Virus record (IMG/VR): IMGVR_UViG_3300021400_001206
Location: 11,782 to 75,781 of that record
Length of the DNA: 64,000 nucleotides
Strand: one strand, 5' to 3'
DNA from: a virus
The position numbers and the translations under genes are program-made. The first letter of the stretch is position 1. The number at the start of each line of letters is the position of its first letter. Positions 37,284 to 51,754 of the stretch are shown here, one piece after another. The notes beneath the pieces are model-generated. The model did not search any database, had not been told where the DNA came from, and saw only the letters and a list, made by a program, of their open reading frames with translations.

Positions 37284-37312
37284 TTGACAAAAGACTAACT
37301 CAATAGTATAAT
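37284..37312 (+). promoter_or_regulatory. sigma70 consensus promoter TTGACA-N17-TATAAT (first cassette promoter)
   Basis: TTGACAaaagactaactcaatagTATAAT. Confidence 0.6.
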
Positions 37313-37369
37313 AATATCAAGAGATGAGGGAAGAAACCTCACAGACCAAAAGAAAAGGAGATTAAAACA

Positions 37370-37549
37370 ATGACGACAATGGAACTGAGAATCAAGGAAA
37401 TGGAACTGAGTGCAATGGTAGATGTAGCTTACAACAGATTGATGGAAAATCCAAAAACCGATTTATCTTGGATGGATGCAGATGCCAAGTACAGAAAAGC
37501 CTTTAAGGAGTGGTCAAAAATTGCGGATGAGGCGCTCAAGCGCATCTGA
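37370..37549 (+). CDS. cassette small protein (59 aa)
   Basis: ATG after AAAAGGAGATTAAAACA. Followed by terminator AGCTCAACTgaaaAGTTGAGCT+T-run. Confidence 0.5.
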   Translation: MTTMELRIKEMELSAMVDVAYNRLMENPKTDLSWMDADAKYRKAFKEWSKIADEALKRI

Positions 37550-37589
37550 GAAAAAAAAGCTCAACTGAAAAGTTGAGCTTTTATTATTT

Positions 37590-37660
37590 GGCTAACGTGA
37601 ACAGCCGTTCGGGCACCGAAAAATTATACCACACAGCGATGCAGTTTGTCAAGACTAAAT
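37590..37660 (-). ncRNA. promoter-plus-GC-hairpin element (copy 1): minus-strand TTGACA-N18-TGgTATAAT firing into hairpin GTGCCCGAACGGCTGTTCACG
   Basis: Reverse complement of ATTATACCACA-N10-TTTGTCAA gives consensus -10/-35. Transcript would begin in the GC hairpin and end at the upstream bidirectional terminator. Confidence 0.4.
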
Positions 37661-37781
37661 TATTCGTCAAATGTAACAAAAAGAAACACCTAAAATTGGG
37701 CAAAATTATTTACTAAAACCTATTGACAAAAGAGGGCAAGCATGATATGATAGTATCATCAAAAGAAAGGAGAACAAAGAC

Positions 37782-38087
37782 ATGACAAGCAACCACTACA
37801 GTTCAGACAGAAAAAAGAGAGAAGAACTTATTCAAATGATCGGTTTAGGAACACCAGTAAAAGAAGTTAGAGTAGACAGAGGACATCGCAACGGCGCTGA
37901 AATCCACGTTATCAGCACAACAGCAATCATCACAATCTACAATGAGAGAACACACAAAATGATAACAAAACTTATTGCAAGACCAGGTCAGATAAAAAGA
38001 TACTACAACGCAAATGAAACAATTCCAACAGACCTGCTGAGACTTGCAAAAGAACACACAAAAGCTGGATATAATGAAGTAAGATAA
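37782..38087 (+). CDS. cassette protein (101 aa)
   Basis: Own promoter TTGACAaaagagggcaagcatgaTATGAT, RBS AAAGGAGAACAAAGAC, terminator GGCGGAAACGCC+T-run. Confidence 0.55.
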   Translation: MTSNHYSSDRKKREELIQMIGLGTPVKEVRVDRGHRNGAEIHVISTTAIITIYNERTHKMITKLIARPGQIKRYYNANETIPTDLLRLAKEHTKAGYNEVR

Positions 38088-38109
38088 AGGCGGAAACGCC
38101 TTTATTTTT

Positions 38110-38200
38110 TATATAACCGACTGACCCGAACGGTCGTTCGGGGCCCGCAAAATTATACCACATATGAGTGCGGTTTGTCAAGACTAAATTATTCGTCAAA
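38110..38200 (-). ncRNA. promoter-plus-GC-hairpin element (copy 2)
   Basis: AAAATTATACCACATATGAGTGCGGTTTGTCAAGAC reverse-complements to TTGACA-N18-TGgTATAAT. Hairpin CCCGAACGGTCGTTCGGG. Confidence 0.4.
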
Positions 38201-38319
38201 TGTGACAAAAAACAAATCCTATTTTTATGCAATATTTTTAATATAATTTTTAAAAAACTATTGACACCAAAAACCTAACATGATATACTTATATCATCAA
38301 GAGAGAGGAGAACAAAAAA

Positions 38320-38469
38320 ATGACAAACTTCATCAACTACATCGTAGGAAAAGACATTAGAGACAAGGACGACAAAATCCTGCACTACGCAATCTTAGCA
38401 TGGACATTCGCTGGTTCAATTCTTGGTATCGTTGTTATGACAGCTGAGTGCCTTGGATATATCGCATAA
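38320..38469 (+). CDS. cassette small membrane protein (49 aa)
   Basis: MTNFINYIVGKDIRDKDDKILHYAILAWTFAGSILGIVVMTAECLGYIA. Promoter TTGACAccaaaaacctaacatgaTATACT. Confidence 0.45.
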   Translation: MTNFINYIVGKDIRDKDDKILHYAILAWTFAGSILGIVVMTAECLGYIA

Positions 38470-38485
38470 ATAAAAAAAAATAAAA

Positions 38486-38520
38486 AAGGGCTTGACAAAA
38501 GCCAAGCCCTTTGATATAAT
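38486..38520 (+). promoter_or_regulatory. terminator-promoter module: hairpin AGGGCTTGacaaaaGCCAAGCCCT contains the -35 TTGACA; TTTGATATAAT follows
   Basis: Spacer 17 nt, extended -10 TGaTATAAT. The hairpin terminates the upstream gene. Confidence 0.6.
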
Positions 38521-38550
38521 AAAATCATCAAAGGAAAGGAAATAAAAAAA

Positions 38551-38820
38551 ATGAAAAATATTTATTTTGAAAGAATCAATAATTTAGTCCTTGCTCTTAA
38601 TGATAATGAAGTCCCCTGCAATGTAGAAAATTGTTATGACGGTTACAAAGTAACTTTTCCTTGGTGCAAAGGTGATGTAATTGCTCATTCTGGAATGTAC
38701 AACAATGAAGATTATGGATATACGGTGGAGTCTTTCGGGTTCCCGTGGGATGGATGTGATGTTACAGTGCTCAGTGTAAGAGAAGCCGTTGAATTAATCA
38801 CTGACTTCTATGGGGCTTAA
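38551..38820 (+). CDS. cassette protein (89 aa), paralog of 42558-42827
   Basis: MKNIYFERINNLVLALNDNEVPCNVENCYDGYKVTFPWC. About 65% identical to MKNNYFETIADLVLALCDNGIPCNVEDLYDGYKVTFPWC. Confidence 0.6.
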   Translation: MKNIYFERINNLVLALNDNEVPCNVENCYDGYKVTFPWCKGDVIAHSGMYNNEDYGYTVESFGFPWDGCDVTVLSVREAVELITDFYGA

Positions 38821-38832
38821 AAAAATTAAAAA

Positions 38833-38867
38833 TGGGGGTTGACAAATTTCAACCCCCATGATATAAT
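38833..38867 (+). promoter_or_regulatory. terminator-promoter module (GGGGGTTGacaaatttCAACCCCC + ATGATATAAT)
   Basis: Same architecture as 38486. Confidence 0.6.
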
Positions 38868-38899
38868 AAGACCATAGAAAAGAAAAGGAGATTAAAAAA

Positions 38900-39136
38900 A
38901 TGACATTTGAAATGACACTTGGACTTATCGCTCTTGGCTCCGCAATTGCAATGTTTGGTCTTTTCTTCCTTAGCATTTGCTTCTCAGCAAAAAAGGCTGA
39001 AAAAGATTTAAAGGAAAACTTAGAACACATGGCTAAAATCGATGAAGTGTTTAAGGAAAAAGCGAAAAGAGAAGGCTACGGAAACAGACTTGAAAACTTA
39101 GAAAACTTTAATATAAGTGACATTTGGAATTGCTAA
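38900..39136 (+). CDS. cassette membrane protein (78 aa), paralog of 42236-42472
   Basis: MTFEMTLGLIALGSAIAMFGLFFLSICFSAKKAEKDLKENLEHMAKIDEVF, ~88% identical to its paralog. Confidence 0.6.
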   Translation: MTFEMTLGLIALGSAIAMFGLFFLSICFSAKKAEKDLKENLEHMAKIDEVFKEKAKREGYGNRLENLENFNISDIWNC

Positions 39137-39210
39137 AAAAAAATAAAAAAGGCTTGACAAAAGTCAAGCCTTTTGATATACTTATATCATCAAGAGAGAG
39201 GAGAACAAAA

Positions 39211-39411
39211 ATGATAGTTCATTACATGGTAACAAGCGGAGACTGGTGCATGGGAGCTCATTCAAGATATAATTCTTATGAAGAAGCTAAAAAAGAATAT
39301 GAAGTATGCAAAGAAAACAGTATCTATGGTTCATTAAAAAAGGTTACTATCAAAGGCTTTTTAAAGAAAAACATCTTTATCGAGGAAATCGAAAGTTTTT
39401 CAATTAAGTAA
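39211..39411 (+). CDS. cassette protein (66 aa)
   Basis: ATG at 39211 after GAGAGAGGAGAACAAAA. The track ORF 39124 start lies in the promoter module. Confidence 0.5.
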   Translation: MIVHYMVTSGDWCMGAHSRYNSYEEAKKEYEVCKENSIYGSLKKVTIKGFLKKNIFIEEIESFSIK

Positions 39412-39479
39412 CATAAAGGGTTGACAACTCCAACCCTTTATGTTACAATAAAATCATCAAAAGAAAGGAAATAAAAAAA

Positions 39480-39662
39480 ATGACAACATTTGTAGTATGG
39501 GTAATAGATTCTGCGGGACGGCACTGGGAAGAAGAAACTTTCACTATTTATGAAGCCGCTTATAATTTTGGAGCTCATCTGGCGGAAGACATGTGTGCTG
39601 AAGAAGATTGGTATATTGAACGCCGTGTTGATGGACAGTTTGATTGTTATATAGGTTTTTAA
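39480..39662 (+). CDS. cassette acidic protein (60 aa)
   Basis: Promoter module GGGTTGACAACTCCAACCC + TGTTACAAT. Terminator ACTGGCAAAACGCCAGT + T7. Confidence 0.55.
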   Translation: MTTFVVWVIDSAGRHWEEETFTIYEAAYNFGAHLAEDMCAEEDWYIERRVDGQFDCYIGF

Positions 39663-39689
39663 AAAAATAAGAAACTGGCAAAACGCCAG

Positions 39690-39760
39690 TTTTTTTGTTA
39701 CCCCGAACGGTCGTTCGGGGTCCGAAAAATTATACCACGCGCGTCAGCCATTTGTCAACA
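39690..39760 (-). ncRNA. promoter-plus-GC-hairpin element (copy 3); predicted ~75-nt transcript hairpin-A7-hairpin-U tract
   Basis: Reverse complement TTGACAAATGGCTGACGCGCGTGGTATAAT. Transcript GGACCCCGAACGACCGTTCGGGGTAACAAAAAAACTGGCGTTTTGCCAGTTTCTTATTTTTTT. Confidence 0.45.
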
Positions 39761-39890
39761 AAAAAATATCCGTCAAAATGCACAAAGATCTCATCCTGAA
39801 ATTGTGCAATATTTTTTATAAAAAATTATTGACAAATATATATAATAGAGTTATAATTATATCATCAAAAGAAGAAAGGAAATAAAAAAA

Positions 39891-40052
39891 ATGACAACAA
39901 TCAACAACCTTCCGGCATACGCAAGCAACTATGAATACATGGTAGTAAGACTGATTGACGGTGAGTACTGGTTCTATGGTGCATATAGCAACGGTAAACG
40001 TGCTGAGAGTGTCGCTCTTGAAATCGGTGGAGAAATCATTCACAATAAATAA
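39891..40052 (+). CDS. cassette small protein (53 aa)
   Basis: Promoter TTGACAaatatatataatagagtTATAAT. RBS AAGAAAGGAAATAAAAAAA. Confidence 0.5.
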   Translation: MTTINNLPAYASNYEYMVVRLIDGEYWFYGAYSNGKRAESVALEIGGEIIHNK

Positions 40053-40057
40053 AAAAA

Positions 40058-40092
40058 TAAAAATGGGGGTTGACAAACCTCAACCCCCATGA
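40058..40092 (+). promoter_or_regulatory. terminator-promoter module (GGGGGTTGACAAACCTCAACCCCC + ATGATATAAT) driving an ORF-less unit
   Basis: Consensus hexamers with 17-nt spacer. Confidence 0.6.
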
Positions 40093-40107
40093 TATAATAA
40101 AATCATC

Positions 40108-40200
40108 AAAAGAAAGGAAGCAACAAAACAGAATAGGGTGGGCGGACGAGCCAAGCGCCGGTTGCTCATCTGAAATGCAGAAAGCTTCTAAAAAAATAAA
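40108..40200 (+). ncRNA. ORF-less cassette: candidate small RNA A (homolog of 45425-45510)
   Basis: GGGTGGGCGGACGAGCCAAGCGCCGGTTGCTCATCTGAAATGCAGAAAGCTTC aligns with GGTGGTCGGCAGAGCCTAGCGCCTATCGGCTATCTGAACAACGGAAAGTCACTTC, with a compensatory GAGC/GCTC versus AGCC/GGCT pairing. Longest ORF is only 18 codons. Confidence 0.4.
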
Positions 40201-40269
40201 AAAAGTAGTTGACAAACTACAAAACATCTGATATAATAAGACCATAGAAAAGAAAGAGAGGAAAACAAA

Positions 40270-40374
40270 ATGAAGTATATGATGTTTGAGGAACTGGTCA
40301 AGATGGTAGCATACAACGAAATCACCGAAGCGGAAGCTGAGGAAATCGCTGAAGAGCTTCTCAAAGATTTCTAA
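40270..40374 (+). CDS. cassette micro-protein (34 aa), paralog of 41747-41854
   Basis: MKYMMFEELVKMVAYNEITEAEAEEIAEELLKDF versus MMKYMMFEMLVEMVAKNELTEAEAEAVAEELLLPY. Confidence 0.5.
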   Translation: MKYMMFEELVKMVAYNEITEAEAEEIAEELLKDF

Positions 40375-40456
40375 AAAAAATTAAAAAGAGGGGTTGACAA
40401 ACCTCAGCCCCTCTGATATAATAGAATCATAGAAAAGAGAAAGAGAGGGAAACAAA

Positions 40457-40645
40457 ATGAAAATTTGGATTGTAAAAGGACACGCATACGCAACAAAAGA
40501 ACTTGCTAAAGAAGCTTGTGCTTATGCTAATTACTGTGAAGAGATGTGCGGTGGTTATGGTCTTTATGAAGTAACTGAAGCCGAAATTGAAACAGAAGTA
40601 AAAGAGAGAGTGCCAGAAAAATACAGAAAAATATATTGTAAATAA
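40457..40645 (+). CDS. cassette protein (62 aa)
   Basis: Promoter module GAGGGGTTGACAAACCTCAGCCCCTC + TGATATAAT. Confidence 0.55.
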   Translation: MKIWIVKGHAYATKELAKEACAYANYCEEMCGGYGLYEVTEAEIETEVKERVPEKYRKIYCK

Positions 40646-40689
40646 AATTAAAAAAGGGGTTGACAAACCTCAACCCCTTTGATATAATA

Positions 40690-40850
40690 AAGACATAAGG
40701 TAAGGGCAGTCAGAGAGGCTGACAGCAACACAAGGTTCGATTCCTTCCCCTACTTCGAAGGGTGTTTTAAAGCAAGTTCACCCAGACGAGGCGAGTAAGT
40801 TCTAAACTAAGTCGAAAATCTCCCACTCATATCAAAAACTTCTAAAAAAT
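40690..40850 (+). ncRNA. ORF-less cassette with tRNA-like T-arm (CAAGGTTCGATTCCTTC) and hairpin GTCAGagaggCTGAC; candidate structured RNA
   Basis: GGTTCGATTCC is the canonical tRNA T-arm sequence. A full cloverleaf could not be built by eye, so it is called tRNA-like only. Confidence 0.3.
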
Positions 40851-41111
40851 AAAAATAAAAGGTTGACAAACTTCAACCTATCTGATATAATAAAATCATC
40901 AAGAGAGAGGAACATAAAAAATGAGAGACCCGCCGTAAAAATCAACAAACTAAAGAAATGCGCCAGAGCCTGGGGACATTAGGGCGCGATGAATGCAGGC
41001 ACGGTGAGCGGACAAGTTCCCATCCCTCACCAAAAAAAAATAAAAAAAATAGTTGACAAATTCAGCTCGGTTTGATATAATAGAATCATCAAGAGAGAGG
41101 AGAACAAAAAC

Positions 41112-41303
41112 ATGACAACAATCATCATCGCCGAAGGAATCACAGCAACCATGACAAACCGCAAGGTAGAGCAGTACCGCAAGGCTATGGCGGCTACTGA
41201 GGCAAGTCGAAGCGTCTGGTGGGATGAACACTTCGACTGGTCGGACTGGGAAGAGTTCTGGAATGACGAGTTTGAAGCTTGGGAGAGATTTGTCAACTCC
41301 TGA
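41112..41303 (+). CDS. cassette acidic Trp-rich protein (63 aa)
   Basis: Promoter module at ~41048-41085. Protein ends WDEHFDWSDWEEFWNDEFEAWERFVNS. Confidence 0.55.
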   Translation: MTTIIIAEGITATMTNRKVEQYRKAMAATEASRSVWWDEHFDWSDWEEFWNDEFEAWERFVNS

Positions 41304-41304
41304 G

Positions 41305-41365
41305 TTTCGGCGCGCCGTGGGCGCACGGGCTTCGCCCGTTCAACCATTATAGCATATCCTCAGGG
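41305..41365 (-). ncRNA. promoter-plus-GC-hairpin element (copy 4)
   Basis: Reverse complement TTGACAAAACCCTGAGGATATGCTATAAT then GGCGCGCC-containing hairpin region. Confidence 0.4.
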
Positions 41366-41700
41366 TTTTGTCAATAGGCAAATTGCACAAAGATTTAGCA
41401 TAAAAATTTCCCATTTTTGTGCAATTTGCCTATTGACAAATCAGTGCAGATGTGCTTCTCGTCAAACTGCACAAAAATAACGCCCAAAACCACCTCATTT
41501 TTGTGCAATATTTCTACTTGACTTTTTTGAAGTTGTGCAAACTACACAAAAGAAGCGCTCTATTATTGTGCAGTTTGCACAAAAAAATTTTTTGTCAATA
41601 GTAAAAATAAAAAATAGCAAAATATACAAAATTTTTATGATCCTTTTGTGCAAAATGTAAAACCGCATAAAAATTAAAAAAATCATTTGACAAGTCTCTA
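41340..41700. promoter_or_regulatory. noncoding hub dense in TGTGCA/TGCACA dyads, with a perfect 25-bp inverted repeat TTTGTCAATAGGCAAATTGCACAAA ... TTTGTGCAATTTGCCTATTGACAAA
   Basis: At least 8 copies of TTGTGCAA/TTGCACAA within ~360 bp, including TGTGCAgttTGCACA. No ORF. Confidence 0.6.
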
Positions 41701-41746
41701 AAAAAGTAGTATTATTATATCAGAAACAAGAGAGGAGAACAAAAAA

Positions 41747-41854
41747 ATGATGAAGTACATGATGTTTGAAATGCTTGTAGAAATGGTCGCAAAAAACGAA
41801 CTGACTGAGGCTGAGGCTGAGGCGGTCGCTGAAGAACTTCTTCTTCCCTACTAA
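41747..41854 (+). CDS. cassette micro-protein (35 aa), paralog of 40270-40374
   Basis: See paralog. Promoter TTGACAagtctctaaaaaagtagTATTAT. Confidence 0.45.
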   Translation: MMKYMMFEMLVEMVAKNELTEAEAEAVAEELLLPY

Positions 41855-41934
41855 AAAAAATAAAAAAAGGGGGTTGACAAACCTCAACCCCTATAGTATA
41901 ATAAAGACAGATCAAAAGAAAAGGAGATAAAAAA

Positions 41935-42156
41935 ATGACAAAGGATTTCTACTACAACGTAAATGGTACAGAGTTTCATGATACAGTAGCTTTTGGACAG
42001 GCTTGGAAAGAAGCTAAGGCACTTGCTAGAGAAGAGCATTGCGGGATTGAAAGAACTGTAGTTTGTGGGGAAAACATTAGATACGAATTCTATGCAAAGG
42101 GCGGAATTTTCGTAGGCAATGAATTTAAAGCCGACTGGGATATGGAAATTCTTTAA
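41935..42156 (+). CDS. cassette protein (73 aa)
   Basis: Promoter module GGGGGTTGACAAACCTCAACCCC + TAGTATAAT. Confidence 0.55.
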   Translation: MTKDFYYNVNGTEFHDTVAFGQAWKEAKALAREEHCGIERTVVCGENIRYEFYAKGGIFVGNEFKADWDMEIL

Positions 42157-42235
42157 AAAAATAAAATAGGGGGTTGACAAATTCAATCCCCTATAGTATA
42201 ATAAGACCATAGAAAAGAAAGAGAGGAAATAAAAA

Positions 42236-42472
42236 ATGACATTCGAAATGACACTTGGACTTATTGCTTTTGGTTCTGCGGTTGTGATGTTCGGTTTCTT
42301 CCTTCTTAGTATTTACTTTTCAGCAAAAAAAGCTGAAAAAGATTTAAAAGAAAATTTAGAACATATGGCAAAAATTAATGAGGTGTTTGAAGAGAAGGCA
42401 AGAAGAGAAGGCTACGGAAACAGACTTGAAAATTTAGAAAATTTTAATATAAGCGACCTTTGGAATTGCTAA
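42236..42472 (+). CDS. cassette membrane protein (78 aa), paralog of 38900-39136
   Basis: See paralog. Confidence 0.6.
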   Translation: MTFEMTLGLIAFGSAVVMFGFFLLSIYFSAKKAEKDLKENLEHMAKINEVFEEKARREGYGNRLENLENFNISDLWNC

Positions 42473-42557
42473 AAAAAAATTAAAATGGGGGTTGACAAAT
42501 CAACCCCCGACTGATATAATAAAATCATCAAGAGAGAAAAAGAAAGGAAATAAAAAA

Positions 42558-42827
42558 ATGAAAAATAACTATTTTGAGACAATTGCTGATTTAGTCCTTG
42601 CTCTTTGTGATAATGGAATCCCCTGCAATGTAGAAGATTTATATGATGGTTACAAGGTGACTTTCCCTTGGTGTTGCGGTGATGTGATTGCTCACTCTTA
42701 TATGCTTGGCAAGGGTAAGCACAGATACACGGTTGAATCTATGGGATTCCCGTGGGATGAGGACGATGTCACATTGCTCGATGTGCAGGAAGCTATTGAT
42801 TTAATCACCAAGTACTATAAAGAATAA
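42558..42827 (+). CDS. cassette protein (89 aa), paralog of 38551-38820
   Basis: Start at ATG 42558 after AAAGAAAGGAAATAAAAAA. The track ORF 42492 start lies inside the promoter. Confidence 0.55.
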   Translation: MKNNYFETIADLVLALCDNGIPCNVEDLYDGYKVTFPWCCGDVIAHSYMLGKGKHRYTVESMGFPWDEDDVTLLDVQEAIDLITKYYKE

Positions 42828-42839
42828 AAGGGGGTTTTA

Positions 42840-42925
42840 ACCCCCTTTTTTCGTCGCCGCCTGGGCGGCCGGGCGCAGCCCGTGGAACCATTATAACATA
42901 CCTTCCAGCTTTTGTCAATAGGCAA
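42840..42925 (-). ncRNA. promoter-plus-GC-hairpin element (copy 5)
   Basis: Reverse complement TTGACAAAAGCTGGAAGGTATGTTATAAT. Hairpin CGCCGCCTGGGCGGCCGGGCGCAGCCCG. Confidence 0.4.
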
Positions 42926-43035
42926 TTTGTACAAAAAATTAGCTGAAAAAATTCCCAAATTTGTGCAATATTTTACTTGACTTCCTATGTAGGCTATGCT
43001 ATACTAGTATCATCAAGAGAGAGGAGAACACAGAC

Positions 43036-43203
43036 ATGACAGAGGCAATCGCAATCTACAACAAGACAATCGAGAATTTTGAATATATGGTCGGTCATAG
43101 GGCAAATATTTCTGACCGAATGGACCTTTGGTTCCGTATCGTTGATAGACTGGCAAAGACGCCGGATGAATACAAGGCTATGATGGAAGCCTTCCCGAAT
43201 TAA
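43036..43203 (+). CDS. cassette protein (55 aa)
   Basis: Promoter TTGACTtcctatgtaggctatgcTATACT. ATG at 43036. Confidence 0.5.
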   Translation: MTEAIAIYNKTIENFEYMVGHRANISDRMDLWFRIVDRLAKTPDEYKAMMEAFPN

Positions 43204-43279
43204 AAAATTTAAAATGGGGGTTGACAAATCTCAACCCCTATAGTATAATTATATCATCAAGAGAAAGGAAGTTAAAACA

Positions 43280-43441
43280 ATGACAAGAATTCAGATTGAT
43301 GAAATAGAAAAACAGCTTAAAGATAAAAGACGTGCTTATAATAAGTGCCGGAGTTTTGCAAAAAGAATTAAATTGGATTATGAAATTGGAGTTCTGTATG
43401 AGCAACTGGCGGAACTTTATAAAAACCTTAAGGAAAATTAA
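43280..43441 (+). CDS. cassette protein (53 aa)
   Basis: Promoter module GGGGGTTGACAAATCTCAACCCC + TAGTATAAT. Confidence 0.5.
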   Translation: MTRIQIDEIEKQLKDKRRAYNKCRSFAKRIKLDYEIGVLYEQLAELYKNLKEN

Positions 43442-43458
43442 AAAGGGGGTAAATAAAA

Positions 43459-43644
43459 ATGTCTTTAATGAAATCAATCACAAGCGGAAAAGAACATAGA
43501 CGCCCCTATTCTGGAAGTAAAGCAATAGATAAAACATGCAGAAATCATGGCGGGTGCCCTTGGTGTGAGGAAAATCGAAAGTATAAATATTTAAAAACTT
43601 CTCAAAAAATGCTTGACAAAATGAAAGAAGCAGGCTATAATTAA
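43459..43644 (+). CDS. cassette Zn-binding-like protein (61 aa), co-transcribed with 43280 gene
   Basis: CRNHGGCPWC motif. Its 3' coding sequence (MLDKMKEAGYN) itself encodes TTGACA-N17-TATAAT for the next unit. Confidence 0.5.
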   Translation: MSLMKSITSGKEHRRPYSGSKAIDKTCRNHGGCPWCEENRKYKYLKTSQKMLDKMKEAGYN

Positions 43645-43679
43645 TACATAAGATAAAGAAAAGAGAGGAGAAACACATA

Positions 43680-43844
43680 ATGAGTAGATTTGACATGATG
43701 TTCGCAGTAGCCAAGCGGTGGGGATTTGAAGCTGAGATGACCATTTGGTTTTGCCGACTCGCTGAGCGTGAAGATGTAGATGACAGCGTTGTCACCCTGG
43801 CATTTGTAACAACTTTAAATACTCCAGTATGCGAAGCTAACTAA
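43680..43844 (+). CDS. cassette protein (54 aa)
   Basis: ATG after AAGAGAGGAGAAACACATA. Confidence 0.45.
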   Translation: MSRFDMMFAVAKRWGFEAEMTIWFCRLAEREDVDDSVVTLAFVTTLNTPVCEAN

Positions 43845-43914
43845 AACAAAAGGGGTTGACAAACCTCAACCCCTTTGATATAATAAATACAGAATAAAGG
43901 AAAGGAAAGAAAAA

Positions 43915-44151
43915 ATGAAAGTGCTTGTAACAAAAGCTAATAGTGATTATTGGTATAAAATTCGTGTCATCAATACTATGGAAGACCTTCAAAGATTTAT
44001 TAAAGAATGTAAACATGATGTTGTTATTGGAGAGAACACTTATACTGATGATGACATTTTTGATTATTGGGAAGGAATGAAAGCAGAAGATATTCCCATT
44101 ATCAAAGAATGTTCTTTACATCTTATAATTTATAATAGCTGGCTTGAATAA
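43915..44151 (+). CDS. cassette protein (78 aa)
   Basis: Promoter module AAGGGGTTGACAAACCTCAACCCCTT + TGATATAAT. Confidence 0.55.
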   Translation: MKVLVTKANSDYWYKIRVINTMEDLQRFIKECKHDVVIGENTYTDDDIFDYWEGMKAEDIPIIKECSLHLIIYNSWLE

Positions 44152-44159
44152 AAATGGGG

Positions 44160-44250
44160 GGCAAGTACCCTCATTTTTTGTCGCCTCGTGGGCGCGCGGG
44201 CCCTGCCCGCGGAACCATTATAGCATATAGGTTGGGTTTTTGTCAAGAGA
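44160..44250 (-). ncRNA. promoter-plus-GC-hairpin element (copy 6)
   Basis: Reverse complement TTGACAAAAACCCAACCTATATGCTATAAT. Hairpin GCGGGCAGGGCCCGCGCGCCCACGAGGCGAC. Confidence 0.4.
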
Positions 44251-44372
44251 AAAATGAAAAAATTTTACACAAAAATTTTTCCTTTAATTTATGCAATTTG
44301 TATATTGACTTTTTTACTATTTTTTATTATAATTTATACATAAGATAAAGAAAGGAAATAGGAAATAAAGAA

Positions 44373-44609
44373 ATGATAGCCTATAGAACAGTTTATATCC
44401 CAGTAGAAAAGAAATGTGAAGTTAAATTTATTCTTTTTATTCAGCCAATTTGCGACCCTCATTCTTATGAGGAACCACATTATTTAAGAGATAGATTTGG
44501 TGATTTAATTACTTTTGATACTCGTAAAGAAGCTGAGGAAAGAAAAGCTATCTATGAGCAGGGATGGTGTACCGTAACAATTGAGGAGCAAGTTACCCCG
44601 ATTGAATAA
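44373..44609 (+). CDS. cassette protein (78 aa)
   Basis: Promoter TTGACTtttttactattttttatTATAAT. Confidence 0.5.
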   Translation: MIAYRTVYIPVEKKCEVKFILFIQPICDPHSYEEPHYLRDRFGDLITFDTRKEAEERKAIYEQGWCTVTIEEQVTPIE

Positions 44610-44694
44610 AAAAATTAAAAAGGGGGTTGACAAAACAACCCCCAACTGATATAATAAAATCATCAAAGAAAAGCAAAAAGAAAGGAAATAAAAA

Positions 44695-44874
44695 ATGAGA
44701 ACAGTAAGATATATCACAAAGTGCGGTAATGTAACAGAAAACTTTTCAGTAGCTAAGACAGAGGGAATTGAGGAAACTTTCCTGCTTGAGGTCAATGAGA
44801 CCCCCGAAAATGTAAAGCTTCAGATGCGGAAACACGCTCTGAAAGCCGAACAGAAAAGGCGTGAAAAAAAGTAA
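44695..44874 (+). CDS. cassette basic protein (59 aa)
   Basis: MRTVRYITKCGNVTENF...KAEQKRREKK. Promoter module GGGGGTTGACAAAACAACCCCC. Confidence 0.45.
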   Translation: MRTVRYITKCGNVTENFSVAKTEGIEETFLLEVNETPENVKLQMRKHALKAEQKRREKK

Positions 44875-44951
44875 AAAAAGGGGGTTGACAACCTCGACCC
44901 CTTATGATATAATAAAATCATCAAGAGAAAAAAAGAAAGGAAATAAAAAAA

Positions 44952-45224
44952 ATGAAGATTTGTATTAATACTTGTTTTGGCGGTTTTGGTCTTTCAGATG
45001 AAGCTTTGCGGATGCTTGGATTTAAAACTCGTTATCCACTAATTTCTCGAACAGACCCTCGTCTAATCGAGGTAGTTAGCACTCTCGGAGAAGCCGCAAA
45101 CGGTTGTTTCGCTCGGCTTGCTATTGTAAGTATTCCGGATGAAGCTACTGATTGGGAGATTGACGAGTATGATGGCTCTGAGGGCATCATCTACGTTCTT
45201 GACGGAAAACTTCATCATATTTAA
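44952..45224 (+). CDS. cassette protein (90 aa)
   Basis: Promoter module GGGGGTTGACAACCTCGACCCC + TATGATATAAT. Confidence 0.55.
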   Translation: MKICINTCFGGFGLSDEALRMLGFKTRYPLISRTDPRLIEVVSTLGEAANGCFARLAIVSIPDEATDWEIDEYDGSEGIIYVLDGKLHHI

Positions 45225-45239
45225 AAACAGGGGGTAATA

Positions 45240-45330
45240 CCCTCTGTTTTTTTTCGTTCGGCGCGCCAACACTCGGGTTGGCGCGAAAAATCCATTATAC
45301 CACACCCTGAGTGGTTTTGTCAAGCATTTT
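45240..45330 (-). ncRNA. promoter-plus-GC-hairpin element (copy 7); predicted RNA GGAUUUUUCGCGCCAACCCGAGUGUUGGCGCGCCGAACG-A8-CAGAGGGUAUUACCCCCUG-U5
   Basis: Reverse complement GCTTGACAAAACCACTCAGGGTGTGGTATAATGG. Two hairpins, the second being the upstream gene's terminator read from the other side. Confidence 0.45.
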
Positions 45331-45424
45331 TTCGAAAAAAATTGCACAAAAAAATATCCCAAAATTAGTACAAAATTCCGACTTGTATTTTCTAAAAAAT
45401 TTTAGTATAATTATATCAAGATAA

Positions 45425-45510
45425 AGAAAGGACAACAAAATTAAGTAAGGTGGTCGGCAGAGCCTAGCGCCTATCGGCTATCTGAACAACGGAAAGTCAC
45501 TTCAAAAAAT
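45425..45510 (+). ncRNA. ORF-less cassette: candidate small RNA B (homolog of 40108-40200)
   Basis: See 40108-40200 alignment. Promoter TTGTATtttctaaaaaattttagTATAAT. Confidence 0.4.
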
Positions 45511-45932
45511 CTTAAAAAAACTGTTGACAAATAAAAAATCTTATGGTATAATAAATACATAAGATAAAGAAAGGACAGTGACACTCCCATGAGAGACCCG
45601 CCGACATAAGCCCTTTGAATTGAGCCTTTGGATGGGCATAAGGCTTAGAAAAAAAATAAAAAAAACTGTTGACAAAATAAAAAAGATATGATATAATAAA
45701 TACAGAAGTTAAGCAAAGGAAAGGACATTAAGTGTATGGGAGTCAGGCAGAAAGCCCCATGTAGGTGGATGTAAGGGGCTAACAAAAATACTATCAGCCA
45801 CGTGGTATAAGGCGCCAAATCCACGAAAACAAAATAAAAAAAAATAAAAAAACTGTTGACAAAATAAAAAAAATAAGTTATAATAAATACATAGTAAAGA
45901 AAACAAAACATAAAAAGAAAGAGGTGTCTAGT

Positions 45933-46289
45933 ATGACAAAACGTGAGATGTTCGCAGAAATTCGTAAGGTAGTTATTGACAACGCTGAGATGGTAGCTTT
46001 CATTGACAAGCAGATTGAGCTTCTTGACAATAGAAAGGCGTCCCCAAAGAAGCCGACTAAAACTCAGCTTGAGAACGAGGGCTTCAAGGCTGACATTATC
46101 GCTTCCCTCATTGAGGTTGGCAAGCCTGTAACAATTAAGGAGCTGTGTGACGCTTGTCCGTCCATTGTAAAGCTGTCCAATCAGAGAATTACTCACCTGC
46201 TCATGGCTCTCCAGTCTGAGAACAAGGTCGAGAGAACTCAGGTGAAGAAAGTTCCGTACTTCGCCATTGCTCAGACTGAGACTGAGTAA
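45933..46289 (+). CDS. cassette protein (118 aa), winged-helix-like; paralog of 53762-54103
   Basis: MTKREMFAEIRKVVIDNAEMVAFIDKQIELLDNRKASPKK..., ~55% identical to MTKREMFVAIREVVVDNADMVAFIDKEIALLDKKRNAPKK.... RBS AAGAAAGAGGTG. Confidence 0.55.
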   Translation: MTKREMFAEIRKVVIDNAEMVAFIDKQIELLDNRKASPKKPTKTQLENEGFKADIIASLIEVGKPVTIKELCDACPSIVKLSNQRITHLLMALQSENKVERTQVKKVPYFAIAQTETE

Positions 46290-46406
46290 CACAAAGGGTT
46301 TTGCGGTTATCCCTAAAAACCGCTCCTTATGGGGATTGTACCGTTGCGGAAAGTAAGACATACAGTGTATGCTGAATCGTGGTTCAACTCCACGTATCCC
46401 CACTGA

Positions 46407-46481
46407 GGGGGTGTAGCTCAGTAGGTTTAGAGCACACGACTTTTAATCGTGGTGTCGAGGGTTCGAATCCCTTCACCCCCA
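46407..46481 (+). tRNA. tRNA-Lys (anticodon UUU; loop CUUUUAA)
   Basis: Cloverleaf: acceptor GGGGGTG/CACCCCC, D-arm GCTC-AGTAGGTTTA-GAGC, anticodon stem CACGA/TCGTG, T-arm GAGGG-TTCGAAT-CCCTT, discriminator A. No encoded CCA. Confidence 0.7.
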
Positions 46482-46696
46482 CTCAGAATCTAATATTCGT
46501 TTTCCTTTCTTTTGGTGCGGGGGTTGTCGTAGATGGCAACCCCCTTTTGGCGTCGCGCGATGGGTCGCCGTGCGACGCCATTGTCAATATGTAATGTTGC
46601 ACAAATTTTTGATCCGCATTTTGTATAAAATTACTTATTGACTTTTTTCCTAATTTTTTGTATAATTATATCATCAACAGAAAGGAAATAAACGAT

Positions 46697-46894
46697 ATGA
46701 ACAACATGGATTGGGTTACAAAAATGAAAACTGGTATGGAACTTATTCACTCTGCTTGTAAAGAAAACACTGATTGGACTAAATGCAAAGAATGTCCATT
46801 TACAAACTATTGTGATGCTATTAATCTCGCTATATCTCAAAAGACACCCGAAGAAGAGAGATGGATTGAGGAAGGCGGTGAGAGTATAAGATGA
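46697..46894 (+). CDS. cassette Cys-containing protein (65 aa)
   Basis: MNNMDWVTKMKT...CKECPFTNYC. Confidence 0.5.
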   Translation: MNNMDWVTKMKTGMELIHSACKENTDWTKCKECPFTNYCDAINLAISQKTPEEERWIEEGGESIR

Positions 46895-47184
46895 AAATGT
46901 ATAAAATTTATATCTCTGATAAGGTTGGCGGTTGGAACACTATGCCGACCGACTGGATGGTAAAGGAAGACTTTGAGAGAGCCTACAAAACGCTCACAAA
47001 GCCTAGCATGTTTGGTTCTGACCGCTTCAAGATTGAAGTCAAAGAAAGAGACAGTTTTTGTATAAAAGAGTGTGTTTGTGGCACTTGTGAGAGAAAAGAT
47101 AATTGTAGTTACTGTGATTGCGATATTTGTGAAGATTTTGACTGCCAAGTCTGCTTCTGCAATATGTACAAAGAAGGGGATTAA
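46891..47184 (+). CDS. cassette Cys-rich protein (97 aa), co-transcribed
   Basis: CVCGTCERKDNCSYCDCDICEDFDCQVCFC. Confidence 0.5.
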   Translation: MKMYKIYISDKVGGWNTMPTDWMVKEDFERAYKTLTKPSMFGSDRFKIEVKERDSFCIKECVCGTCERKDNCSYCDCDICEDFDCQVCFCNMYKEGD

Positions 47185-47275
47185 AAATCCTCTTTTTTTG
47201 TGCAAAATTACAACTTGACATTTTTCCTAAAATTTATTATAATTTATACATAAGATAAAGAAAGGAACACACCAA

Positions 47276-47467
47276 ATGAAAGTAAAAATCTCTTATATAA
47301 TGCGAGTAGAAAAAGTTGTAGAAATGACACCTGAAAAATATTGTTATCTTAGGGCAGACCACAATGACCCTCAATATTTTCCACCTGAAGCTCGTGAAAC
47401 TGATATGCGCCCTTATAGCGAAAAAGATGAAAGTGAACTCACAGATTATTTCTTTAGAGAAAGATAA
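47276..47467 (+). CDS. cassette protein (63 aa)
   Basis: Promoter TTGACAtttttcctaaaatttatTATAAT. Confidence 0.5.
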   Translation: MKVKISYIMRVEKVVEMTPEKYCYLRADHNDPQYFPPEARETDMRPYSEKDESELTDYFFRER

Positions 47468-47703
47468 AATAAGGGGTTGACAACTCCAACCCCTTATGAT
47501 ATACTAATAACATAAGCGGTTCCACTGGATGCAAGTCGGAAGACCCGCAAATCTGCGGAGCGTCACCAGACGAAGATGATTAAATGTCGGATAAAAAGGA
47601 TGCAGCGCATCCCGACAGCCGCCTAAATAAAAAAATAAGGGGTTGACAACTCCAGCCCTTTATGATATACTAATATCATCAAGAAAAGAAAGGAAATAAA
47701 AAA

Positions 47704-47931
47704 ATGGCAATTAAGAATACAAAACAAAGTGAGATTGAAAGAAAGATTGAACTTCTCAAAGATATGCATAATTACATTCTTGATATGGGGGATGACTTTG
47801 TTTATGATATTTGGATTAAAGATGGTGTCCCCGATGAACCCGATGATGAAATCTTTGAATTTATCGCAAGCAACGATGATGACTGGCGTGAAGTTTGTGA
47901 ACTGTTTGGGAAGCTTATAGAAGAAGATTGA
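47704..47931 (+). CDS. cassette acidic protein (75 aa)
   Basis: Promoter module AAGGGGTTGACAACTCCAGCCCTTT + TGATATACT. Confidence 0.55.
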   Translation: MAIKNTKQSEIERKIELLKDMHNYILDMGDDFVYDIWIKDGVPDEPDDEIFEFIASNDDDWREVCELFGKLIEED

Positions 47932-47943
47932 AAGGAGATAAAA

Positions 47944-48201
47944 ATGACATCAACATCATTTATTCAGTATTATAAAAAGAGCGGTTTTGGTTGGCTTCGT
48001 ATGGAAGAGCTTCCAGTGGCGGTACAGAAAGATTTGATGAAAAGACTTGCGCGCTGTGACAAAAGAATTGGTGTATATGTATATCACTCTCATGAGGGGA
48101 ATCCTCAGGACGGAATTCATTTTGTGGGAATGAAAATTGGATACTATGTAAGAAGTAAAAATCCGTTTTCTTGGAAATTCAGAGCAACCGCTGGAAATTA
48201 A
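47944..48201 (+). CDS. cassette protein (85 aa), co-transcribed
   Basis: RBS AAAGGAGATAAAA. Confidence 0.5.
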   Translation: MTSTSFIQYYKKSGFGWLRMEELPVAVQKDLMKRLARCDKRIGVYVYHSHEGNPQDGIHFVGMKIGYYVRSKNPFSWKFRATAGN

Positions 48202-48267
48202 AAAAATAAGGGGTTGACAAAACTCAACCCCTTTGATATAATAATATTATCAAAAGGAAAGTAAAAA

Positions 48268-48387
48268 ATGAAAATTAAAATTGGTTGGAACCGTTGGAAT
48301 GACCCACACTGGGGTTATAACTACAATGAGAACTGTGATTATCATCATGAACTTTGTTTCTATAAACTCTATATCTGTTGGAAGTGA
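48268..48387 (+). CDS. cassette micro-protein (39 aa, Trp/Cys/His-rich)
   Basis: MKIKIGWNRWNDPHWGYNYNENCDYHHELCFYKLYICWK. Confidence 0.4.
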   Translation: MKIKIGWNRWNDPHWGYNYNENCDYHHELCFYKLYICWK

Positions 48388-48396
48388 GGTATTAAA

Positions 48397-48660
48397 ATGA
48401 AATATTACAAAATAACTTGCACAAATGGCTATTGTGGTTGTGATGAACATTTTTACATTCAAGCAGAATCTGAAAGTGAAGCCTGGGCTGAAGCAGACGA
48501 GATTTGTTCTGATGAATACTCTTTTGCTTATCCTGATGAGCGGTTTGTCGATGATATGGATAATTGGGATGAAATTGAAATGTATGAAATGAATGTTGAA
48601 GCTTACGTTGAAGAAATTTCAAAAGAGGAATATCTTGAAGCAGAAGAGCAGGGTTATTAA
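48397..48660 (+). CDS. cassette acidic protein (87 aa)
   Basis: Co-transcribed. Strongly acidic C-terminus. Confidence 0.5.
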   Translation: MKYYKITCTNGYCGCDEHFYIQAESESEAWAEADEICSDEYSFAYPDERFVDDMDNWDEIEMYEMNVEAYVEEISKEEYLEAEEQGY

Positions 48661-48760
48661 ACCCTACTTTTGTGCGGGACGTTGTCGCGCGGGCTGCGCC
48701 CGAAACTCCATTATACCACATAACCAGGCTTTTTGTCAATAGGCAATTTGAACAAAATTT
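48660..48760 (-). ncRNA. promoter-plus-GC-hairpin element (copy 8)
   Basis: Reverse complement TTGACAAAAAGCCTGGTTATGTGGTATAAT. Hairpins GGGCGCAGCCC and AGGGTTtaatAACCCT. Confidence 0.4.
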
Positions 48761-48866
48761 CAACCCTAATTTTCCCAGAATTTGTGCAACTTTTTTATTA
48801 AAAACTGTTGACTTCACTATTCTAATCTGATATACTTATATCATCAACAGAAAGGAAATAAATAAA

Positions 48867-49034
48867 ATGAACGAACCTTTTGAACTTTTTAAAATACTAT
48901 TCAAGTTTTATATTTGGTTTATAGTTATTATCTTTACTACTAATGATATTTTTCCAAAGCCTCTTCCCGGGAATTGGAGTTATGTAGTAATCATCATTGT
49001 AGCAATTATCAGTTTTTTAATGGCAATTTTTTAA
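48867..49034 (+). CDS. cassette small membrane peptide (~55 aa; coordinates +/-1)
   Basis: MNEPFELFKILFKFYIWFIVIIF...IIIVAIISFLMAIF, two hydrophobic segments. Promoter TTGACTtcactattctaatctgaTATACT. Confidence 0.35.
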   Translation: MNEPFELFKILFKFYIWFIVIIFTTNDIFPKPLPGNWSYVVIIIVAIISFLMAIF

Positions 49035-49103
49035 AAATACCTATTGACAAAAAAGAATTAATCTGATATAATAAGACCATAAGATAAAGAAAGGAAATAA
49101 AAA

Positions 49104-49541
49104 ATGACAACTACAGTATATTTCGATATGGATGGAACAATAGCAGACCTTTACAGCGTTCCCAATTGGCTTCCTCTTCTCAGAGCTTATGACCCGAAAC
49201 CTTATGCGGAAGCTAAGCCACTTGTAAACTTAAATTCTCTTGCTAGAATCCTTAATAGACTTCAGCGACAGGGAATTAGAATCGGCATTATTTCATGGTT
49301 GAGCAAAACCTCAACGCCTGAGTATGACGCGAAAGTTACCGCCGCAAAAGAAAAATGGCTTGCTAAACATCTTGCCAGTGTAACTTTTGATGAGGTTCAT
49401 ATTATTCCTTACGGAACACCTAAAGAAAAATTCGCCACCGCAAATGATATTTTGTTTGATGATGAAGCTAAAAACAGGGAAAACTGGATTGGTAAGGCTT
49501 TTGATGTAGATTCAATTATTGAAATTCTCAAGGGGATGTAA
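49104..49541 (+). CDS. HAD-superfamily 5'(3')-deoxyribonucleotidase-like phosphatase (NT5C-like)
   Basis: N-terminal VYFDMDGTIADL (HAD motif I, DxDGT), as in NT5C-type deoxynucleotidases. Confidence 0.55.
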   Translation: MTTTVYFDMDGTIADLYSVPNWLPLLRAYDPKPYAEAKPLVNLNSLARILNRLQRQGIRIGIISWLSKTSTPEYDAKVTAAKEKWLAKHLASVTFDEVHIIPYGTPKEKFATANDILFDDEAKNRENWIGKAFDVDSIIEILKGM

Positions 49542-49609
49542 AAATCCCCTTGACAATTCAAAGAAAATGATATATAATTAATATATCAAAAGAAAAGGAG
49601 CTAATAGCG

Positions 49610-49852
49610 ATGTTTATATTTTTTAACAAGAAAGAAAAAGCAACCGATTCCCCTCAATATGTAATTGCTTTTTGTGATGAAAATGACCTTTCAACTAAAT
49701 TTGGTGCATATCCGCATGTTTTTGATTCCTATGATTCCGCAAAACAAATGATTTTTTCAAAAGCTAACGGATGGGGAAACGCTATTATTGAAAGAGTTGG
49801 TGATTCAGCTTGTATTAATTGCGGTTGGCTAATCATTGAAAAAATAAATTAA
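49610..49852 (+). CDS. cassette protein (80 aa)
   Basis: Promoter TTGACAattcaaagaaaatgaTATATAAT. Confidence 0.5.
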   Translation: MFIFFNKKEKATDSPQYVIAFCDENDLSTKFGAYPHVFDSYDSAKQMIFSKANGWGNAIIERVGDSACINCGWLIIEKIN

Positions 49853-49922
49853 TCATTGACAAATAACAAAAAATAATATATAATATAAAAAACAAAAACA
49901 AAAGAAAAAGGAGAAAAAAATT

Positions 49923-50102
49923 ATGACAAAAATAGCAGTTCTTATTGGTACAATTCTTGGTCTTATTCTTGGTTATGGCATTGTCTTTGGTATTGTATCT
50001 CTCATTGTGTGGGCAATTTGTTGGGCATTCGCTATTACATTCTCATGGAAGATTGCCGTTGGAATCTTCGCAGTTATATTCCTGTTAAAAATGTTTCTTT
50101 AA
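49923..50102 (+). CDS. cassette membrane peptide (59 aa, 2 TM)
   Basis: MTKIAVLIGTILGLILGYGIVFGIVSLIVWAICWAFAITFSWKIAVGIFAVIFLLKMFL. Confidence 0.5.
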   Translation: MTKIAVLIGTILGLILGYGIVFGIVSLIVWAICWAFAITFSWKIAVGIFAVIFLLKMFL

Positions 50103-50124
50103 GAAAAATTAAGAAGAGTGGCAA

Positions 50125-50215
50125 TTGCCACTCTTTTTTCTATGGGGCGCGAGCCGTCGCCTCGCGCCGAAATTCCATTATACCATATCGCCGCACTTTT
50201 TGTCAATAGACAAAT
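50125..50215 (-). ncRNA. promoter-plus-GC-hairpin element (copy 9); predicted RNA GGAAUUUCGGCGCGAGGCGACGGCUCGCGCCCCAUAG-A6-GAGUGGCAAUUGCCACUCUUCUUAAUUUUUC
   Basis: Reverse complement CTATTGACAAAAAGTGCGGCGATATGGTATAATGGAAT. Terminates at the hairpin shared with the 49923 gene. Confidence 0.45.
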
Positions 50216-51741: not shown

Positions 51742-51754
51742 GAGGGCTTATACC

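Follow-up and report, generated by a model that had tools for sequence, protein, structure and literature searches.

Hairpins embedded in the promoters of a large uncultured phage: probable PeSL-type boundaries of early gene cassettes

Promoter-early stem-loops (PeSLs), described in the T4-like phages RB49/phi1, PST/T4 and nt-1/KVP40, are intergenic composites that combine, 3' of an AT-rich tract, a near-perfect sigma70 promoter (-35/N17/-10) and a polyG/polyC stem-loop with a Shine-Dalgarno sequence and an ATG (Arbiol et al. 2010, PMC2839356; Comeau et al. 2014, PMC4122927). PeSLs cluster in ORFan-rich, hyperplastic regions, lie at indels between close relatives and fall into five positional subclasses, one of which overlaps the -35 (PMC2839356, PMC4122927). 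Promoter and terminator-like activities have been measured, mini-circles can form, and PeSL stem-loops without a U-tract lowered downstream sense expression in E. coli (PMC2839356). In the searchable literature the term is used for T4-like phages only, save passing mentions elsewhere. Here we analysed 64,000 nucleotides of the virus record IMGVR_UViG_3300021400_001206 (positions 11,782 to 75,781 of that record; hereafter, the window), where a first-pass annotation had noticed GC hairpins interlocked with promoters at the junctions between small genes. We consider it moderately probable that these modules are composite boundaries of the PeSL type, placed between the cassettes of an early, hyperplastic region in a large uncultured phage; to judge from their sequence, they are best read as a promoter joined to a bidirectional but sense-leaky terminator or insulator, which would also be a substrate for recombination.

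The plus strand of the window carries a dense array of sigma70/sigmaA-type consensus promoters, probably marking the early, hyperplastic region of the phage (Table 1). The window has 51 exact matches to TTGACA-N14-20-TATAAT, where chance would give 0.24, and on the plus strand between 36 and 57 kb TTGACA-N17(16-18)-TATAAT was matched at 47 sites when one mismatch was allowed and at 52 when two were. Each array promoter precedes a non-coding stretch or a tiny open reading frame (ORF) of 34-238 aa; these ORFs are mostly ORFans, and 7 of the 10 tested lacked a PHROG match. A strong embedded hairpin (-13.9 to -19.5 kcal/mol) was found at only 18 of the 47 promoters and a weak one at three (40209, 40863 and 41053), while about 25 have none; the figure of about 40 repeats given in the first-pass annotation had confused the promoter count with the hairpin count. 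All seven sites that it quoted do hold a GC hairpin whose 5' arm includes the TTG(A) of a consensus -35, with TATAAT 17 bp further on, and its coordinates and sequence examples were exact (GGGGGTTGACAAACCTCAACCCCC, 40065-40088; AGGGCTTGACAAAAGCCAAGCCCT, 38487-38510).

In the strong hairpins, the 5' arm consists of three to five G (at times GGGC, GGC or GGGA) followed by the TTG(A) of the -35, the loop has 4-8 nt, mostly (A)CAAAYY, and the spacer contains the 3' arm, made of (T)CAA and a C-run (TCAACCCC), the stem being commonly lengthened to 10-13 bp by outer A/T pairs. The 5' arm had been said to read TTGACA, which is right for TTG(A) but not for the CA of the hexamer, mostly located in the loop. 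The whole module spans about 90 bp, in the order A-rich UP-element-like tract, GC hairpin over the -35, TG-extended -10, short leader, strong Shine-Dalgarno sequence and ATG, the latter about 58-68 nt beyond the start of the -35. Since TTGACA, the 17-bp spacer and TATAAT are all present, with TGn before the -10 in 15 of the 18 hairpin modules, the perfect consensus suggests that host sigmaA/sigma70 holoenzyme would initiate at every module. Hairpin-less promoters likewise have an A-tract (10.5 against 12.9 A in 18 nt; background A fraction 0.37); it is probably a UP-like promoter element that would double as the template of an antisense U-tract.

Table 1. Positions of the promoter array, the hairpin modules, the opposite-strand promoters and the same layout in cultured phages.
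Feature	Position	Strand	Details
sigma70/sigmaA-type consensus promoter array, ~50 copies	37284..56222	+	
Module, hairpin 38485-38512 (AAAGGGCTTG/CAAGCCCTTT)	38485..38520	+	-35 at 38492; extended -10 ends 38520; 22 nt past stop of ORF 38320-38469
Module, hairpin 38832-38859	38832..38867	+	-35 at 38839; stop codon 18 nt upstream
Module, hairpin 39147-39174 (AAAAGGCTTGAC/GTCAAGCCTTTT)	39147..39182	+	-35 at 39154; -10 TATACT
Module, hairpin 39411-39443, overlapping upstream stop codon	39411..39449	+	-35 at 39421; -10 TACAAT
Module, hairpin 40063-40090	40063..40098	+	-35 at 40070; non-coding cassette downstream
Module, hairpin 40387-40414, one T.G wobble	40387..40422	+	-35 at 40394; left border of cassette 40431-40641
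Module, hairpin 40653-40680	40653..40688	+	-35 at 40660; right border of cassette 40431-40641 indel
Module, hairpin 41869-41892	41869..41902	+	-35 at 41874; -10 without preceding TG
Module, hairpin 42166-42194, loop 5, one G.T	42166..42202	+	-35 at 42174
Module, hairpin 42486-42509, loop 4	42486..42520	+	-35 at 42492
Module, hairpin 43214-43241	43214..43249	+	-35 at 43221; L019 orthologue G.U to A-U
Module, hairpin 43849-43876	43849..43884	+	-35 at 43856
Module, hairpin 44622-44643 (GGGGGTTG/CAACCCCC)	44622..44655	+	-35 at 44627
Module, hairpin 44879-44903	44879..44913	+	-35 at 44885
Module, hairpin 47469-47497	47469..47505	+	-35 at 47477; -10 TATACT; non-coding cassette downstream
Module, hairpin 47635-47663	47635..47671	+	-35 at 47643; only strong hairpin not behind an ORF; non-coding cassette precedes
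Module, hairpin 48208-48233	48208..48242	+	-35 at 48214
Module, hairpin 52770-52799 (GGGATTG/CAATCCC)	52770..52807	+	-35 at 52779
Weak variant GTAGTT-GACA-AACTAC, -6.1 kcal/mol	40205..40237	+	non-coding cassette precedes
Weak variant AGGTTGA/TCAACCT, -8.3 kcal/mol	40860..40891	+	non-coding cassette precedes
Minus-strand promoters, -35 starts	53324, 51832, 50206, 48739, 45323, 44246, 42918, 41374, 39758, 38181, 37652	-	
Same promoter + GC-only hairpin unit, sense copies	54683, 56015	+	
Same layout, Bacillus phage P59 (Herelleviridae)	L030 4009		
Same layout, Klebsiella jumbo phage RCIP0023	L031 1366, 4009, 6160		3 copies in 8 kb
Same layout, Enterococcus phage phiM1EF2	L032 4009		

The hairpins are not a chance product of promoter composition. 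When the columns of the aligned promoters were shuffled, 0.42 strong hairpins were obtained, never more than 3 in 200 trials, whereas 18 were observed; folding of the single junctions, a check proposed in the first-pass annotation, confirmed their stability, the z-scores lying between -4 and -6.7 for both strands. Pairing was assessed in an alignment of 40 distinct modules sharing one register, drawn from the window and from 12 related contigs and pre-selected for folding: 94% of the cells were paired, both sides had changed in 5 of the 11 pairs, and double-change cells numbered 34 against 10.8 in the shuffles (0/500), while pairing fell to 27-55% when the register was slid. Stem position -1 was G-C in 29 modules and C-G in 10, and the outer pair was A-U in 13, U-A in 11, C-G in 2 and G-C in 2. 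Compensatory stem variation, as had been claimed, is thus present, with the reservation that these are fold-selected sequences. A less biased case came from L019, which together with L002 is a locus of one 144-kb contig (IMGVR_UViG_3300021256_000064) syntenic with 35.3-63.9 kb of the window: the orthologous junctions W52779 and L019_10727 (the former named by its -35 start in the window) differ in two pairs, each changed by a compensatory double substitution (A-T to G-C; T-A to A-T). Moreover, W40070 and its L002 counterpart have unlike but fully paired stems (GGGGGTTGA/TCAACCCCC versus GGGGCTTG/CAAGCCCC), the downstream flank being about 91% identical and the upstream homology stopping at the module. 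Many modules are near-identical, and the palindromes might be imagined as functionless by-products of the duplication of one ancestral module; this is hardly credible given that compensatory changes keep the pairing, orthologous junctions included, that shuffled columns so rarely produce a hairpin, that the same layout exists in unrelated cultured phages and that the hairpins are associated with ORF ends.

Within a single genome the hairpins occur in at least four registers and with loops of 4-8 nt, a variability that speaks for a structure rather than a fixed protein operator. An inverted repeat across the -35 and spacer of only a subset of early promoters does have the classic geometry of an operator, here for a dimeric phage repressor, yet we hold this to be highly improbable: no conserved half-site or fixed spacing was found, since half-sites (GGGGG, GGGC, GGC and GGGA within this one genome, and covarying), spacing and register all vary, G.T wobbles break the symmetry of the DNA, and the presence of the palindrome follows the abutting upstream ORF and not the downstream gene.

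This dependence on the upstream gene is marked. Seventeen of the 18 strong hairpins begin 9-22 nt past the stop codon of a plus-strand ORF, and in the window a hairpin is found in 17 of the 24 promoters that abut an ORF end versus 1 of the 28 others (Fisher p=2.3e-7); the same test in 22 related loci gave 68/168 versus 10/232 (p=8.5e-20). The promoter array recurs in the 28 related loci scanned; of the loci that had been recruited by the hairpin sequence itself, most contain embedded hairpins. Taken with the maintained pairing, these data support the hairpin being a selected structure of the upstream gene's 3' end. Hairpin-less promoters form three main groups, located behind a separate terminator junction, after a non-coding cassette, or abutting an ORF, the last (7 of the 24 abutting promoters in the window) being concentrated at 49-55 kb. 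The separate-type junctions, 11 in number, run from the ORF stop through a standalone bidirectional terminator and a GC-only hairpin belonging to a minus-strand consensus promoter to the plus-strand promoter, with a clear terminator in 10 of the 11. Consistently with our interpretation of the modules as cassette boundaries, many hairpin-less promoters sit behind standalone bidirectional terminators, and the fact that most cassettes are bounded by one hairpin, embedded or separate, supports the hairpin as a gene-end signal.

Since the hairpin lies 5' of the module's own start site, RNA arriving from farther upstream would contain it. We scored its tails as the number of T in the 8 nt after the GC core and took the standalone terminators of this phage as the reference. 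For sense transcription, the stem is that expected of an intrinsic terminator (GC-rich, 5-12 bp, loop of 3-8 nt, just past a stop codon), but the U-tract is not: the 18 modules of the window have 2-5 T (mean 3.9) and none reaches 6, compared with 5-8 (mean 6.6) at the 10 standalone terminators of the window, and among 80 hairpins of related loci (mean 3.9) only one reaches 6. The first-pass annotation had equated the -10 region with a terminator U-tract (TTTGATATAAT), which is true of a minority of modules. In the antisense direction, the GC-rich hairpin is directly followed by a T-rich tract, with 4-7 T in the window (mean 6.0; at least 6 T in 14 of 18), a mean of 5.3 in the related loci (at least 6 T in 45 of 80) and a mean of 5.6 at the standalone terminators; moreover, a consensus scan called the embedded hairpins terminators on the minus strand only. 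By sequence, the module would thus be a canonical intrinsic terminator for antisense transcription, so that the opposite-strand termination predicted earlier is better backed than its author had held, and in the sense direction at best a weak terminator, possibly a NusA-dependent one, by analogy with terminators of Firmicutes; efficient sense termination is not predicted from so poor a U-tract. The array's standalone bidirectional terminators likewise have a GC-rich hairpin with an A-tract on one side and a T-rich tract on the other, whereas in the modules the sense tail is the TG-extended -10, with the few T given above, because of which this symmetry is lost and weak sense termination is to be expected.

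The tail asymmetry raises the question of whether the modules are essentially terminators for antisense transcription only, selected for stopping minus-strand transcripts, with sense read-through giving nested polycistronic early RNAs and the A-rich tract serving as U-tract template. This is an unlikely alternative. The minus-strand-only calls of the scan and the tail counts agree with it, as do 11 strong minus-strand promoters within the array and the two pairs that the GCCAAG-type stem gains on the minus strand (-20.2 versus -16.2 kcal/mol). On the other hand, the A-tract is present at hairpin-less promoters too, the minus-strand units already have terminators of their own, hairpin stability shows no overall strand asymmetry (-14.73 versus -14.77 kcal/mol, p=0.59), and PeSL stem-loops without a U-tract cut sense downstream expression in E. 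coli (PMC2839356). A count of wobbles, which would indicate the strand under selection, gave 10 G.T versus 3 A.C, or 5 versus 3 at unconstrained pairs only, and was set aside, since next to an invariant -35 any transition in the pairing arm is driven towards a plus-strand wobble. Returning to the composite module, the hairpin 9-22 nt past the stop would attenuate sense transcription leakily, probably with the help of a factor, or protect the 3' end of the RNA, or both, its U-tract being compromised by the -10 sequence, while on antisense RNA the hairpin followed by the complement of the A-rich tract would be a canonical terminator, predicted to confine transcripts from the 11 minus-strand promoters and from convergent genes.

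The cassettes between the modules turn over, a recombinational side that had been absent from the first-pass annotation. Between the window and IMGVR_UViG_3300021256_000064, conserved blocks are 70-95% identical, and within the array cassettes have been inserted, deleted or replaced, with one multi-cassette translocation (window 49.1-51.9 kb found between the equivalents of 45.37 and 45.26 kb). Of 48 junctions, no more than 12 are syntenic on both sides; allowing for two offsets of about 50 nt raises the number to 14. When the module was taken as -25 to +62 of the -35 start, 26 of the 45 homology-block ends fell inside modules, which cover 24.6% of the region (p=2e-6), recurrently at -19/-21 and at +37 to +62. 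Cassette 40431-40641, for example, is missing from the 144-kb contig, where a single chimeric module (L2rc 3612) combines the left flank of W40394 (AGAGGGG...CCCCTCTG) with the right flank of W40660 (ACATAAGGTAA.GGCAGTCAG). With dozens of near-identical copies around unrelated tiny genes, the modules could provide portable homology through which whole cassettes would be gained, lost, replaced or translocated. The excess of block ends in modules and the existence of chimeric modules could also mean that the inverted repeat serves above all in recombination at the level of DNA, as an attC-like hairpin or cruciform that is recognised or exploited when cassettes are excised and integrated, any effect on transcription being secondary. 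We regard this as improbable, considering that hairpin-less promoters lie at breakpoints equally often, that hairpins track ORF stops and not cassette ends in general, that ordinary homologous recombination between similar stretches of about 90 bp would be enough, and that no recombinase or integrase was linked to the modules, although no search for one was made. Integron gene cassettes are similar in forming promoter-proximal arrays of single genes with imperfect inverted-repeat borders (attC) and in being gained or lost cassette by cassette; the repeats described here differ in bearing their own promoter and in that homology-driven exchange suffices, and the resemblance appears to be one of outcome only.

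Several observations weigh against the interpretation of the modules as sense-leaky, bidirectional boundaries. Hairpins are lacking at 7 of 24 abutting junctions in the window and at 100 of 168 in the relatives, and the element is therefore dispensable; the sense tail is non-canonical in every module of the window; the antisense T-tract may be a by-product of the UP-element, since hairpin-less promoters have the A-tract as well; neither the wobble count nor the stability comparison favours one strand; and, modules being alike everywhere, any cassette-wise turnover would place some block ends at them. The stop-and-start function proposed in the first-pass annotation is strengthened by the gene-end placement and by the PeSL precedent, and weakened by the poor sense U-tract.

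At the sequence level, the present family agrees with PeSLs in every respect: all 18 modules have the AT-rich tract, a -35 and -10 separated by 17 bp, the stem-loop, a Shine-Dalgarno sequence and a start codon; the stable G-run/C-run stem-loop overlaps the promoter; the surroundings are a hyperplastic region of small ORFans; and modules are found at points of indel, replacement or translocation between relatives. The phage, with its DnaE-type polymerase, is not a T4-like myovirus, which is a matter of scope and not of mechanism. One geometry dominates here, the 5' arm lying across the -35, whereas in the 50 kb of RB49 that we examined the stem-loop is mostly within the spacer (TTGACAggggatc...gatccccTATAAT) or over the -10, with a T-tract on neither side. 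The -35-spanning geometry sets the A-tract against the stem and thus creates what should be a canonical antisense terminator, which the RB49 PeSLs do not have; it predicts strong antisense and weak sense termination. The dual-function idea is plausible and has an experimental precedent in the activities measured for T4-like phages. One element of a different PeSL positional subclass was seen in the same array: at promoter 49550, a hairpin (GGGGATGTAAAAATCCCC, 49528-49549) lies directly 5' of the -35 and not across it, overlapping the end of ORF 49104-49541.

Serial strong early promoters are also known from the SPO1 terminal redundancy, the T5 pre-early and early regions and the T4 early regions, where, as here, many strong host-type promoters each precede one or a few very small genes at one end of the early region; there, the usual description has promoter and terminator as distinct neighbouring sites, with no interlocked palindrome. 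The layout GGGG-TTGAC-loop-GTCAA-CCCC was found in intergenic regions of unrelated cultured phages as well (Table 1), and K64-1, a relative of RCIP0023, matched the layout query only. The design, which had been called unusually economical, thus belongs to a described class and is recurrent rather than unusual. What sets the present family apart from the described PeSLs is the phage lineage, the dominant -35-spanning geometry and the antisense terminator, canonical by sequence, that results from it. The copies in P59, RCIP0023 and phiM1EF2 have a -35-embedded GC hairpin with an upstream A-tract, and the RCIP0023 promoters have in common a 'cagtactg' motif just 5' of the -10. The PA5oct transcriptome paper is silent on promoter/terminator overlap.

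With these findings, PeSL-type cassettes would no longer be confined to coliphages and vibriophages of the T4-like group but would include a clade of large uncultured phages, possibly of gut or rumen Bacillota, and the recurrence of the layout in unrelated Bacillus, Enterococcus and Klebsiella phages suggests a convergent and general solution for packing independently expressed, exchangeable early genes. As marks of cassette borders, the modules could aid the annotation of ORFan-rich early regions; as compact natural parts that would combine promoter and insulator in about 45 bp, they may be of interest to synthetic biology.

The window is phage DNA with a G+C content of 28-39%. Replication and nucleotide genes (Dda-like helicase, DnaE-type PolIII alpha, NrdD and NrdG) occupy the plus strand at 0-10 kb. 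Genes of the virion, with a portal and a virion protein among their products, lie on the minus strand at 12-34 kb, and the array of tiny genes is on the plus strand at 37.2-56.2 kb. The closest matches of the DnaE-type polymerase are those of Enterococcus phage H1 (41% identity) and SPbeta YorL (40%), and megablast of 20 kb against a phage collection found no close cultured phage at the DNA level. An exact 22-mer (GGGGTTGACAAACCTCAACCCC) is present in 12 IMG/VR contigs of 11-144 kb and in 6 contigs of metagenome-assembled or uncultured genomes, the taxonomic labels of which contradict each other (Lachnospiraceae, Bacillota, Bacteroidales and an 'Acinetobacter' rumen bin); these titles were not relied on for the host. 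The low G+C content, together with strong Shine-Dalgarno sequences and TG-extended -10 boxes of the sigmaA type, is the sole basis for proposing that the host is probably a member of the Bacillota.

The 11 minus-strand consensus promoters (TTGACA-N17/18-TGnTATAAT) inside the plus-strand array are directly followed by a GGAATTTC-like leader and then by a perfect GC-only hairpin, whose sequence differs among copies; the first 50 nt of these units fold at -13 to -20 kcal/mol. In 10 of the 11, an A-rich linker leads into the bidirectional terminator of the upstream gene, predicting RNAs of about 60-80 nt. In the window and related contigs together there are 98 distinct promoter plus GC-only hairpin units, 80 antisense and 18 sense, and some of the hairpins sit between convergent promoters on both strands. 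The antisense GC-only hairpins gave no Rfam match and no conserved loop motif; among the ideas that may be entertained for the units are a put/nut-like antitermination site, a PR'-6S-like unit and a roadblock. A bolder scheme, quite unlikely in our opinion, would see in the whole a self-insulating and self-shuffling array, where hairpin and A-tract would be obligate bidirectional insulators with the 11 antisense units, these units might act as put/nut-like antitermination or roadblock elements, later sending transcription leftwards across the early array in the direction of the minus-strand virion genes, and the modules would be substrates for the excision of ORFan mini-circles, a phage analogue of the integron.

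A second class of promoters, located at 42977, 44305, 46638, 47215 and 54803 on the plus strand and upstream of the minus-strand promoters, has a tttgtgcaaaatt motif 5' of the -35 in place of the A-tract, often with TTGACT and a T-rich spacer (tttttcctaaaatttat), and is arranged in divergent pairs; it may represent another temporal class or a regulator binding site. Other promoters head cassettes that lack an ORF (40099-40190, 40689-40850, 40892-41040, 45400-45500, 45552-45650, 45697-45850, 47505-47640 and 53501-53670) and that likely encode small RNAs; none had an Rfam match. Two non-coding cassettes have the motif GGTGG.CGG...GAGCC.AGCGCC in common, and one carries a tRNA T-arm-like GGTTCGATTCC. 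A tRNA-like fold of the cassette at 40696-40840 was considered and rejected, as it was not called by ARAGORN and its folding energy was not significant (z=0.17). The ATGAGAGACCCGCCG motif, readable at 40892 as a mini-ORF (MRDPP-stop), is conserved in two non-coding cassettes and also present in L002, with shorter ATGAGAGA matches in the related loci L003, L004 and L010, and GGACATTAAGTGTATG is common to one non-coding cassette and L004, with a near-match in L012.

Under gathering and E-value thresholds, Rfam returned for the window only a tRNA-Lys and chance miRNA-like matches on long hairpins. Chance matches to miRNA precursors mark a near-perfect hairpin of about 100 nt (41351-41456), which overlaps the minus-strand promoter at 41374, the sole antisense unit without a clear downstream terminator. 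The tRNA-Lys(UUU) gene lies within the early array at 46407-46482 on the plus strand and is followed on its 3' side by a GC hairpin (46520-46545) and then by a second GC-rich palindrome (46551-46581).

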